A stretch of DNA of 64,000 nucleotides from Octopus vulgaris (taxonomy: Eukaryota), in assembly GCA_951406725.2 (NCBI GenBank), contig OX597814.1, positions 99,944,001 to 100,008,000 of the forward strand, in the 5' to 3' direction. Below the pieces are notes generated by a model that did no database searches, was not told where the DNA came from, and worked only from the letters and a program-made list of their open reading frames with translations. Shown in pieces: positions 3,853-62,029 of the stretch. A program made the position numbers and the translations under genes. The stretch's first letter is position 1. The number at the start of each line of letters is the position of its first letter.

Positions 3853-4000
3853 ACAAAAAGCAATAAAGATTCAAGTTAATTTAAATGAATTTACTTGAAT
3901 ATGGTACCTAACTTAGATGCACCAAAAAACTATACGGTTTTAACAATACAGTAATGTGGGGTGATTATAAGCGAGAAAGAAGCAACAAGAATGGTTAGGT

Positions 4001-4091
4001 TTTTAGTACAATCGTTTCATACAAGGACAGGCTTTATTAAAAGTTGCAAAAATTGCAGCATATAAACGTGTCCCGTACTCATCAGCTAAAA
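4001..4091 (-). ncRNA. Type I hammerhead ribozyme in the PLE 3' UTR
   Basis: Minus strand reads TTTTAG-CTGATGA-GTAC GGGAC...GTCC TT GTAT-GAAAC-GATT-GTA-CTAAAA: 6-bp stem I, canonical core, stem II closed by G:U, short stem III, GUA cleavage triplet. Confidence 0.85.
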
Positions 4092-4242
4092 TACATGTGA
4101 TTTCTCTAGACATCCTAGTGGTTGAGGCTATACTCATGAAGTAATGTAGATAATTAAGTAACATAATCAGATTTCCAAAGTTCATTAAAGTTCTTTAAAG
4201 ATGGTGTACAGTCTTATCACAGAATTTAAAAAAAATTTCAAT

Positions 4243-4530
4243 AGCATCACAGAGAAGGTGACTTAATCCATAGTGTACATATGAATTTCCAGAGATATGA
4301 GGAGGGATTACATACTCACAGACGACAAATTTATCCATTGTTAATCACAACGAGGTGGGTCTCAATTCCTGCTTATTAGCATTACAGAGAGGGTGAGTTA
4401 ATCCTTTGTATAGATGCACAATTTCCAATGGTGTAGATGTAAATTTCCAGAGAAATGAAGAGGAATTTCATATTCACAGGCGATAAATTTATCAATGGTT
4501 GAACACAATGAGGTAGGTATCAATTCTTGC
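4243..4530. repeat. Diverged tandem duplication (2 x ~135-150 bp) in the PLE 3' UTR
   Basis: agcatcacagagaaggtgacttaatcc...ctcaattcctgct versus agcattacagagagggtgagttaatcc...atcaattcttgct. Confidence 0.8.
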
Positions 4531-5546
4531 TATATGATTAGGTATTTGCCACATTAATCACATTACTGCTATTTACAAGAGACTGTAGCTATTTAACTTT
4601 TAAAGGCTGAAGGGCTTTCTAGAGAGGCAAAGAACAGAAAAGGGAAGGAAAGAGAAGAAAAGAGAGAAAATAAAGGAGGAGGGAGCAAAAGGGGGGGGAC
4701 TAAAAGAGAAGAGAAAAGGAAAAAGAAAAAAGAAAAAGAGAATAAGAAGAAGAGAAAGAAAAAAGAGAAAACAGAAAGAAATAGGGAAAGAAGGGAAAAA
4801 AAGAAAAAGAAAAAAAGAGGGTTCTAGTTATACAGAAGAATTAGTAGACGACAAGTCTGGTTTTAATTTACAGGCATCTAGGAACTAGAGGAGAATATTA
4901 TTATTTGACCAGTAAAACAGCTAATTTATTGCTGTTGAAAGCAGCTATGAATCTAAAGAGAATCTAAAGAGATAACACGGTCAGGGGTTTAGGGGTCAGA
5001 GGCTAAAATCAAAAGAAAATACATTAGGAAAATCTAAGTATAATCTTATCAAAAAGTCATTAAAATTTATTTATTTAATTTATTCATTTTACTGTCTTAA
5101 GGAGTTGCCGTTATTATTCATACATTGACGGACTACAGGTCAAATCTTAGAAGATCATTTACAAGGTGTTAGGGAATTGTCTATCATAATGAAGATAATC
5201 ATATTATTACCGAGGGAGTAGCCTTATTTATTTAATTTTGAGATAGAATTATGGGGCTTTATTAACTCATTTTATTTTATTAAAGTTATGCTACTTAAAT
5301 TAGATTAAGTTAAGAATTAAAATTAAAAATTAAAATTAAGATTTAAAATTATGAGTTTGAAATTAAATAAAGCCTCAATTAAGCAGCGTATAAGTACTAT
5401 TCATTTCCCTGTTCTCAAAAAACTGATGCAGATATAAGGAAAAAGATAACTGTAGTGTGAGAACTCTTAGTTATCTACTTAAAGTAGTGCTATACTAGTA
5501 AAAATCAAGTTATATCTATCTATCTATCTAGTTACGAATATTCTAA

Positions 5547-59632: not shown

Positions 59633-61007
59633 CAATATATACATACATACACGCATACATACATACATACATATATACATACATATATGTAGGTGTGTGT
59701 GGTAAGTAGCTTGCTTACCAACAACATGTATGTATGTCATGCGCTTTGCAGTAAGGCGCAGTGTATCATGGAAATGCCGCTATAACTCATAAAAATCATC
59801 AATACTGGATTTAAAATTATTCGCCGTTTATCTACTGTAAAATTTCGCGGTTCATTTTAAATATTATGAGTATGTGTTGAATTTTGCATTTGTAACTTGC
59901 TAGTAATTATTTTTAATAGAAGCACTTAACTAGAGCGTAGTGGGAAGAAATAGTCATCTACTTTGAACTCAGTACCTGATTGTTACTTAATTAATGGAAA
60001 ACGTAACCATTAATATGTTATTTTTTTTCAGCGCCCAGTCAATTGTGTCAATACATCACCCTCAGTAATTTATTATAAATTAAATTTTCACTCAATCAAT
60101 TTATTTTAAAATTCGTTGTAGAAATTTATTGCGGTTAACAATTATTTTATTCTCTACTTTTTCATGGTTTGCTGTGTTGCAATTTATCCAGAAAGCATCA
60201 CACTTACGTGTGCAGTGTGATGGTTTGGATCACATAATAATGCTTTAAAATGTTGTACATACATAGAAATCTGTATTTTACACTCCTTGTTGGAAGTATA
60301 TTCTGAGTGATTTGCGATTTGTATATCATAAGTGGGAGGTGTTTGAGTTCTTTATGAATTTTGTTAATGATGTATTTATCAATTTTATAAGTAACTTTTA
60401 TTTTGTTCAGGTTGTGCATTGTTACTTGGTGTTGCATCTGTTGTAAGAGTGTGAGAGAGGTTGTATTTGCGTTGGTCTGTTATAGTTAAGGATACCAATC
60501 TCTTCAGTTACTAATTATTTCAAAACTTTCTTAATCTTCTATGATTTCATTATTAAAATCTTCTTCAGTCGAGTATAATTTACAAATAAGCCTGAGAAAG
60601 GATTTCACTGGTCATATTTTGTGTCTACGTTGTCACACGGCACATCCGCGCATATGTATGTATGTTTGTATATATATATATATATATATATAGATATATA
60701 TATATATATATATATATAATTATCAATAATAAAGGGTGAAATTAATTAATTTAGAAATAATCATTAATTTCACCAAGTAGAGTTCGGCATGTAAAAGCCC
60801 CATTCAAGGAAGGCTTAAGTAATACTAAGTAATTAAGGGTTTAGCAACGATTTGCCTCACCACACACCGAATTTAGAAATAGCAGTCAAAAAGTTTTGGC
60901 TATTCTTTCTACTTAAAAGGGAGATTCCAGTAAAACCAAAGCACTTAAAAAGCAAACGACGCAGGCAAAAGAGAAAGAAATGACGAAAATCATTCTATAT
61001 TAAGTCA

Positions 61008-61098
61008 CCTACGAACGTACGTTTCGGAATTAAGTCATTGCAGAGCATAAAAATAAAATCAGTATGTCTTACCTGACTATTTTCCTCCTCAGCGTAGG
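61008..61098 (-). ncRNA. Type I hammerhead ribozyme (GUU triplet)
   Basis: CCTACG-CTGAGGA-GGAA...TTCC-GAAAC GTAC GTT-CGTAGG. Confidence 0.85.
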
Positions 61099-61746
61099 AC
61101 TCTTCAATCATAAATAATTGCGTCTCAATTATTAATAATTGTGTATTAAATTTGAAGGCACTAGAAGACATCACCTCAACTCATGGTATCAGAGCGAGCG
61201 TAAGGCTTTCCAGTACCACCAAATTCATTGGGTGAATGAAAGTATGTCACCATCCCCCTACCGCCAGCGTGCTGCCAAAATAAGATGCTACAGTTTTTTA
61301 AGTGCTTTGGTTTTACTGGGATCTCCCTTTTAAGTAGAAAGAATAGCCAAAACTTTTTGACTGCTATTTCTAAATTCGGTGTGTGGTGAGGCAAATCGTT
61401 GCTAAACCCTTAATTACTTAGCATTACTTAAACCTTCCTTGAATGGGGCTTTTACATGCCGAACTCTACTTGGTGAAATTAATGATTATTTCTAAATTAA
61501 TTAATTTCACCCTTTATTATTGATAATTGTATATCTCATCCAAGTAAAAAACTGTAGCATCTTATTTTGGCAGCACGCTGGCGGAAGGGGGATGGTGACA
61601 TACTTTCATTCACCCTTTGAATTTGGTGTTACTGGAAAGCCTTACGCTCGCTTTGATACCATGAGTTGAGGTGATGTCTTCTAGTGCCTTCAAATTTAAT
61701 ACACAATTATTAATAATTGAGACGCAATTATTTATGATTGAAGAGT

Positions 61747-61837
61747 CCTACGCTGAGGAGGAAAATAGTCAGGTAAGACATACTTATTTTATTTTTATGC
61801 TCTGCAATGACTTAATTCCGAAACGTACGTCCGTAGG
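61747..61837 (+). ncRNA. Type I hammerhead ribozyme (GUC triplet; predicted cleavage after 61831)
   Basis: CCTACG-CTGAGGA-GGAA AAT AGTCA...TGACT TAA TTCC-GAAAC GTAC GTC-CGTAGG. All core nucleotides intact. Palindromic stem III ACGTACGT. Confidence 0.92.
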
Positions 61838-62029
61838 TGACTTAATATAGAATGATTTTCGTCATTTCTTTCTCTTTTGCCTGCGTCGTTTGCTTTTTAA
61901 GTGCTTTGGTTTTACTGGGATCTCCCTTTTAAGTAGAAAGAATAGCCAAAACTTTTTGACTGCTATTTCTAAATTCGGTGTGTTTTGAGGCAAATCGTTG
62001 CTAAACCCTGAGTCGCTCAGGTTTTTGAA

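Follow-up and report, generated by a model that had tools for sequence, protein, structure and literature searches.

Hammerhead Motifs in a 64-kb Stretch of the Octopus vulgaris Genome Very Probably Mark Ends of Coding Penelope-Like Elements and Two Related Noncoding Units

Hammerhead ribozyme motifs of type I occur repeatedly in a 64,000-nucleotide (nt) stretch of the Octopus vulgaris genome (contig OX597814.1, positions 99,944,001 to 100,008,000; here, the window), which belongs to a microsatellite-rich assembly of 2.8 Gb in 227 contigs. The window very probably holds the ends of at least five coding families of Penelope-like elements (PLEs), with a hammerhead near the 3' end and mostly at a TA repeat, together with two related protein-free units of 560 to 600 bases that were likely copied by the same kind of enzyme. 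The five families (E, H, and C, of Hydra type, and A and B, of Neptune type) are assigned to coding PLEs because their longer copies run into frames for reverse transcriptase (RT) and the GIY-YIG endonuclease (EN). The initial annotation of the window had connected the hammerhead copies with PLEs, and this connection holds, with RT/GIY-YIG frames found beside families P, E, H, C, A, and B. It had also described about 10 noncoding partners of a single autonomous element; for C, E, H, A, and B this description has to be abandoned, as the longer copies read, in the same orientation, into sequence that encodes RT or GIY-YIG, and the short ones are mere truncated ends of autonomous PLEs.

Results

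Short hammerhead copies were traced to coding elements by DNA searches for relatives, in each of which 40 candidates were scored (coordinates of all families are given in Table 1). EN or RT matches lie upstream of family C on the same strand in four loci (L114, L360, L375, and L378), same-strand EN matches lie upstream of family H in 5 of 20 loci (L319, L320, L322, L323, and L335), and a 428-amino-acid (aa) frame ending in GIY-YIG lies upstream of family E (L151). The E copy in the window includes an inverted piece of its own EN end at 28339-28416, and its mutated core, CUAGUGA, corresponds to CUGAUGA in 18 of 25 loci. The 5' ends of B, C, E, and H copies are ragged.

Families A and B are, by their motifs, Neptune-type PLE ends. 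Among 30 loci picked by Neptune-type N-terminal sequence, 11 have A as an upstream pseudo-long terminal repeat (pLTR) running into the 5' leader of an RT frame. One such frame continues to a GIY-YIG domain (L468), and another locus has an EN with a Neptune-type linker (L475); upstream of B, a 505-aa RT-EN frame was found (L086). The A and B frames thus read as RT, Cys-rich linker, and C-terminal GIY-YIG (L086; L468 with L475). The stems of A, B, and the related family G differ by compensatory changes: of 157 contexts, 88% are paired, versus 81% in partner shuffles (maximum, 84%), in a comparison that spans three lineages only. Some Neptune-type 3' untranslated regions (UTRs) of A/B kind hold CA/CATA-rich tracts (L475, G000:C13:769001-771100, where they exceed 1 kb, and L081), and A and B elements may therefore be a source of microsatellites in addition to targeting them.

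The coding element P is, on its translated motifs, a Hydra-clade PLE: one open reading frame (ORF) holds RT and then a C-terminal GIY-YIG, with RWK, DKT (in place of DKG), YRDD, CxCx5C, YFYIG, CxxC, and CxH and without CX2-5CxxC. Assignment to Naiad was ruled out by the C-terminal EN. A first look gave 1,925 candidate copies of P, and the 40 that were scored are 96 to 99% identical; the hammerhead core is exact in 29 of 30 loci. The copy in the window, which the initial annotation took for an autonomous element, is without the ATG, residues 1 to 22, and the upstream pLTR. The complete form is represented instead by an intact sister copy (L310), 98.1% identical to the window copy, with a 4,650-bp unit, a 957-aa ORF, and two pLTR hammerheads 4,650 bp apart, and two further loci (L013 and L017) show the true P start directly after a pLTR. 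P insertions can be two-armed: 11 of 30 loci have a second arm in inverted orientation, which stops at element position 4727 to 4735, and a main arm that stops at 4844 to 4848. A protein search returned 41 relatives, among them a named protein from Octopus sinensis (71% across 30% of the main-frame region), and 0 Pfam families matched in four window frames.

The left arm of P, at 8360-8700, is composite: at (TA)n it has the 3' end of an E-sister element, which overlaps by a short T-run with part of the P RT region in inverted orientation. This structure may have arisen when RT switched templates from one Hydra-type family to another, or when an insertion landed next to an older stub. A decayed RT fragment, 25% identical to the P RT, was also seen at 51865-52461. 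Hydra-like frames of 646 to 731 aa from other families were met outside the window (L308, 335-2284; L306, 1236-3428; L307, 1389-3326), and the L306 and L307 frames are followed downstream by a hammerhead-like motif.

Noncoding hammerhead units, which the initial annotation had proposed, do exist, as families D and F. The D unit is 600 nt long and leads at its end directly into the beginning of another unit (L122); its longest ATG frame is 58 aa. Of 25 loci fetched, three that overlapped or were duplicated were removed, leaving 22 distinct ones. Ten of these 22 are two-armed, and all 10 pair an end at unit position 581 to 588 with an end at 440 to 485; (TA)n is present at 26 of 32 arm ends. The hammerheads at 61008 and 61747, which had been counted as two elements, are the two arms of one such insertion (60714-62009). 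Family F, an older relative, has a unit of about 560 nt and forms partial tandems in two loci (L222 and L226). PLE protein matches belonging to D or F were absent from the 25 + 25 loci inspected. Given that these families lack a coding frame, that the 3' end runs into the next unit, and that D has twin arms like those of P, D and F are likely nonautonomous PLEs, retrozyme-like, that borrow a PLE RT, and this RT is probably of Hydra type. Cofolding of two D motifs predicts a double-hammerhead pairing through an 8-nt palindrome (-49.6 versus 2 x -19.3 kcal/mol). Contigs of four sequencing runs cover D; their RNA status is a guess, and ends, strand, and circles are not readable from contigs. The first hammerhead of the L122 tandem has a U4C core. 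Near 61190, the opposite strand of the D unit includes a 12-mer that we take to resemble a plant-type initiator-tRNA primer site, probably by chance.

Placement at (TA)n was scored as a tract of at least four TA units starting within 10 to 14 nt of the 3' anchor, leaving out the window copies and eight loci that lacked the anchor motif. Over six locus sets, 137 of 157 scored copies have (TA)n at the 3' end: 26/29 for P, 27/27 for A copies chosen by their 5' 35-mer only, 26/28 for a second A set, 22/27 for B, 18/22 for C, and 18/24 for E. The background rate is 0.9 to 1.8% outside microsatellites and 4.6 to 6.1% with them included. Several copies without a 3' (TA)n continue into the next tandem unit. 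The docking of element ends at (TA)n, as claimed in the initial annotation, is therefore real.

The most abundant hammerheads depart from the canonical core. A 30-letter B pattern with positions 4, 6, and 7 and loop II left free has 19,226 exact matches, of which only 309 contain canonical CUGANGA. By hand count, the first 100 matches listed include 94 with U6 (the A6U variant), and across all 100, N7 is A in 28, C in 20, G in 11, and U in 41. In a set assembled irrespective of the core (75 local copies, after 22 of 97 were dropped as coming from loci selected by canonical core), positions 3, 4, 5, 8, and 9 are kept in 72 to 74 copies and U6 in 68. N7 splits four ways and clusters on a core-masked tree whose bootstraps and subfamily order are rough; N7 = G is inflated by the choice of loci, and a CpG at positions 7-8 raises the rate there. 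Taken from the alignments, the B core pattern suggests constraint. The A pattern has 10,914 exact matches, and the first 100 listed, again counted by hand, divide into C4 (75), U4 (23), and A4 (2).

For individual motifs in the window, we applied a strict descriptor of type I hammerheads (an unaltered CUGANGA core, at least 4 bp in stem I and 3 bp in stem II, GAAA, stem III, and UH), with 20 local dinucleotide shuffles as the control. At all 10 hammerhead sites named in the initial annotation the type I outline is recognizable, but only three pass: 4085-4007 and 61092-61014 on the minus strand and 61753-61831 on the plus strand (shuffle mean, 0.05). Allowing up to one core change adds the site at 55883 (U4C; shuffle mean, 0.25), and allowing two adds the site at 28030. 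The other named sites are decayed or variant copies from real families: stem II is bulged at 18778, the core has a C3U change at 24748, 25332 is an inverted repeat in which both arms have decayed, stem II is mismatched at its base at 30549, and U16.1 is lost at 49130. Among the weaker remnants that had been proposed, those at 17605 and 47520 are of the abundant B type, but the one at 40000 is unsupported, with 0 relatives in a pool of 464 loci (about 1.9 Mb). The description of the families as unrelated in sequence is only partly true, since D and F are related (80% identity over 80 nt), as are A, B, and G, and E and H. In an Rfam search with E values up to 1, no hammerhead family is among the matches listed (150 of 314), nearly all of which are microsatellite-driven microRNA matches.

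This density of hammerheads, 3 strict motifs in 64 kb, is ordinary for the genome. A background sample of 60 fixed-interval 10-kb stretches (L246 to L305; 599,900 bases) includes 21 exact-core sites (tile shuffles, 0, 0, and 0) and 41 sites with up to one core change (shuffles, 4, 1, and 5). Extrapolation gives roughly 70,000 to 100,000 strict motifs genome-wide. Profiles of eight window families have 59 matches in the sample, or about 275,000 by extrapolation, fragments and relatives counted. The very high copy number that had been put forward thus stands, at about 10^5 strict motifs. Seven of the 21 exact-core sites are identical hammerheads in one tandem array, a retrozyme-like family absent from the window.

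Discussion

Established PLE biology offers a route by which such copies would arise. The GIY-YIG domain would nick (TA)n, and RT would prime on the RNA near the end of the pLTR and usually drop off after 0.2 to 1 kb; such early drop-off would leave hammerhead-bearing stubs that far outnumber full elements. If priming occurred again on the other strand, about 100 to 113 nt deeper in the RNA, the inverted arm would result. In D, with its palindromic stem III, two tandem motifs are predicted to fold as a double hammerhead and to release a 600-nt monomer.

Several observations weigh against this account of the window as PLE ends and PLE-dependent units. The Hydra and Neptune labels rest on motifs. 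No coding element with a D or F 3' end was found in searches that scored 40 candidates each, which a rare parent could escape, and neither unit genuinely resembles the 3' UTR of P or E. Two same-strand hammerheads occur in only 2 of 22 D loci (L122 and L123), the others being partial tandems. No coding parent was found for family G in 25 loci, and family I has neither a collinear ORF nor a coding parent in 20 loci. In L475, no A-type 3' end is present within 2.1 kb after the frame. The tracts may be old (TA)n targets or TA tails made at insertion. Finally, the 5' edge of A is sharp, with 6 of 10 sampled matches starting at model positions 1 to 8, and plain truncation is insufficient to explain it.

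The sharp edge would be expected if many short copies were self-propagating noncoding elements, with solo A pLTRs transcribed from their 5' edge and retrotransposed alone like short interspersed elements (SINEs). The 5' 35-mer of A has 1,197 exact matches, and (TA)n lies within 10 nt upstream of such copies in 21 of 30 cases as well as downstream in all 27 scored. Three internally deleted Neptune-type copies (L173, L447, and L471) with different left breakpoints have the ORF start rejoined to the same A edge. We nevertheless regard this explanation as unlikely: the A sequence with its U4C core is the pLTR of coding copies, where it reaches further 5' into the 3' UTR; one alignment holds no diagnostic change that splits solo copies from pLTRs; and the ragged 5' ends of B, C, E, and H do not fit it. 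It is highly improbable that the association with (TA)n arose without targeting, from the density of microsatellites or from AT-rich tails that grew into repeats after insertion. TA tracts are indeed dense (21 per 10 kb, 4.1% of sampled sequence), but the enrichment exceeds 10-fold even over the inclusive background, in young copies (97 to 98%) the spacing between element end and tract is constant, and a (TA)n preference is published for Hydra PLEs (PMC8557442).

For D and F, a more serious competitor is that they arose simply by internal deletion from a PLE outside the sample and were copied off linear read-through RNA, with the hammerhead as a passenger and no circle involved. D copies are mostly 1 to 1.8 units long, the D unit junction has only 13 exact matches, published PLE hammerheads are weak cleavers, and 8 of 9 Xenopus retrozyme dimers were left uncleaved in the published work covered. 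Both core and stems are intact in the young family D, however, with a double hammerhead predicted, and no coding remnant was found in the 25 + 25 loci, so that we lean against simple deletion while granting it an appreciable chance. The reading of D and F as retrozyme-like nonautonomous PLEs is the one retained below.

Most of this system is known; the window adds new members and no new system, as hammerhead-bearing, (TA)n-targeting PLEs have been published for octopus and retrozymes have been proposed to be PLE passengers. Comparisons with published work apply to the portions of each source that were covered. Craig et al. 2021 describe (TA)n insertion and canonical hammerheads for nearly all families of the Hydra clade, and Hydra-1_Obim of Octopus bimaculoides combines the (TA)n preference with a canonical hammerhead (PMC8557442). 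The initial annotation had left it undecided whether such elements were described in this lineage, and the core claim had thus already been published. P shares with Hydra-clade PLEs the C-terminal GIY-YIG, the RWK, DKT, CxCx5C, CxxC, and CxH motifs, and a canonical hammerhead close to its 3' end; both insert at (TA)n and occur as partial tandems, as inverted copies truncated on the 5' side, and with alternative ends (PMC8557442). It differs in size, since its 4.65 kb, with an Asn-rich insert in the 957-aa ORF, falls outside the general tendency (not a rule) of published Hydra elements to be <3 kb (2,507 bp in Hydra-1_Obim), and in the offset between arm ends, which is 113 nt versus a published Hydra tail of 30 to 40 bp (PMC8557442).

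Most metazoan minimal hammerheads are single motifs that probably derive from truncated PLEs (Cervera and De la Pena 2014; PMC4209133). Families A, B, and G resemble them in being mostly single motifs from truncated PLEs, in the loop-less palindromic stem III, in an extra nucleotide between A9 and G10.1, and in G10.1-C11.1 (PMC4209133). The exact-match counts for B and A exceed the 2,000 to 9,000 per genome in that work, and the dominant cores differ, as the portions covered report U3-A8 covariation and no A6U. U4C and A6C are published natural hammerhead variants of lowered activity, A6C favoring Mn2+ (PMC3088659, PMC7151607). No report of a natural A6U core was found in titles, starts of abstracts, and passages; one may be present in Lunse et al. 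2017 or in the Cervera 2014 supplement. One tentative and rather improbable proposal is that the commonest hammerhead of this genome is an A6U core fixed through successive active master lineages of Neptune-type PLEs, with N7 turning over repeatedly, and that selection would keep a hammerhead fold that binds protein, or a ribozyme that is deliberately slow or needs a cofactor, instead of cleavage as such. If so, the A6U and U4C cores and the twin-arm footprint of P and D would make it testable what PLE hammerheads do and whether PLEs mobilize animal retrozymes.

D and F share with metazoan non-LTR retrozymes a noncoding sequence of low GC content (35.5% in D, below 45 to 50%), a type I hammerhead whose stem III is palindromic, units joined head to tail, mostly as partial tandems in D, and coexistence with PLEs, the proposed helpers (Cervera and de la Pena 2020, PMC7229834; 10.64898/2026.07.22.740005). 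Their unit length of 560 to 600 nt compares with 150 to 450 nt in typical retrozymes and 51 to 972 nt in Li, Clavereau and Pollet 2026 (10.64898/2026.07.22.740005). Unlike retrozymes, D and F copies, known here from DNA, are mostly shorter than two units, dispersed, TA-docked, and twin-armed in the manner of PLE insertions. Families C, E, H, A, and B fall outside the non-LTR retrozymes altogether, their longer copies being coding. One source on O. vulgaris lists 31 Penelope-like families as recently active, along with 893 SINE families that are unclassified, and the word "ribozyme" is absent from the portions covered (PMC13282606). A search of the retrozyme and cephalopod literature at title and abstract level found only PMC8557442.

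What is new is the scale, with about 10^5 strict motifs by extrapolation, many of them in short repeats liable to be annotated as unclassified SINEs. The young, intact Hydra element at L310 is suited to biochemistry, D and F are noncoding families whose insertion shape matches that of a coding element, and the high-copy A6U and U4C cores, overlooked by standard descriptors, can be assayed directly.

Features of the window

Table 1 Hammerhead-bearing families and related features in the window (PLE and clade names follow motifs)
Feature	Coordinates	Strand	Remarks
Family P main arm, 5'-truncated Hydra-clade PLE	3853-8357	-	3' end adjoins (TA)n tract 3778-3853
P frame, RT and C-terminal GIY-YIG, without ATG and residues 1-22	5547-8357 (frame open to 8390)	-	Motif reading
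P hammerhead in 3' pLTR: CUGAUGA, long stem II, 2-bp stem III	4007-4085	-	Strict descriptor
Left arm, inverted 253-nt copy of P RT region	8360-8612	+	99.2% to 7275-7527
E-sister subfamily 3' end, closes left arm at (TA)n	8610-8700	+	94.6% to best local relative
Family C, truncated 3' end of coding Hydra-like PLE, hammerhead stem II bulged	18674-18860	-	Upstream EN/RT
Family C, further pieces	12825-13000, 24284-24382
Family H, truncated 3' end of coding Hydra-like PLE, core UUGAUGA	24690-24895	+	Upstream EN
Family I, two decayed hammerhead arms as inverted repeat	25301-25453	.	Relatives
Family E, truncated 3' end of coding Hydra-like PLE	27755-28416	-	L151 frame
Family F, truncated copy of ~560-nt noncoding unit, (TA)n both sides	30275-30630	-	Older relative of D
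Family B, truncated 3' end of Neptune-like PLE, core CUGUNGA (A6U)	47442-47640	+	L086 frame
Family B, related pieces	17573-17702, 25054-25178, 33973-34078
Family G, old minimal-hammerhead remnant related to A and B	49077-49180	+	Canonical core in relatives
Family A, pLTR/3' end of Neptune-like PLE, core CCGACGA (U4C)	55829-56008	+	(TA)n both sides
Family D left arm, unit positions 1-588, hammerhead 61092-61014	60714-61300	-	Ends at (TA)n 60669-60718
Family D right arm, unit 350-600 then 1-466, partial tandem, hammerhead 61753-61831	61295-62009	+	No (TA)n at this end

Most printed relatives of family I have a CCGACGA core. Other CUGANGA strings were set aside: those at 23156 and 56789 have 0 relatives in the 464 loci, and the one at 42324 belongs to an unrelated common repeat. 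A remnant of a further hammerhead family, absent from the initial annotation, lies at 42487-42560, where the GAAA half is lost; its relatives have a canonical core and a 5-bp stem II. Another repeat family, at 41380-41747 and 57368-57737, has CUGAGGA followed in relatives by GAAU (not GAAA) and departs from the hammerhead consensus. Finally, a very common short repeat without a hammerhead, often flanked by TA, is present at 15409-15598, 16456-16645, 39230-39440, 53057-53265, and other positions; we take it to be probably a SINE.

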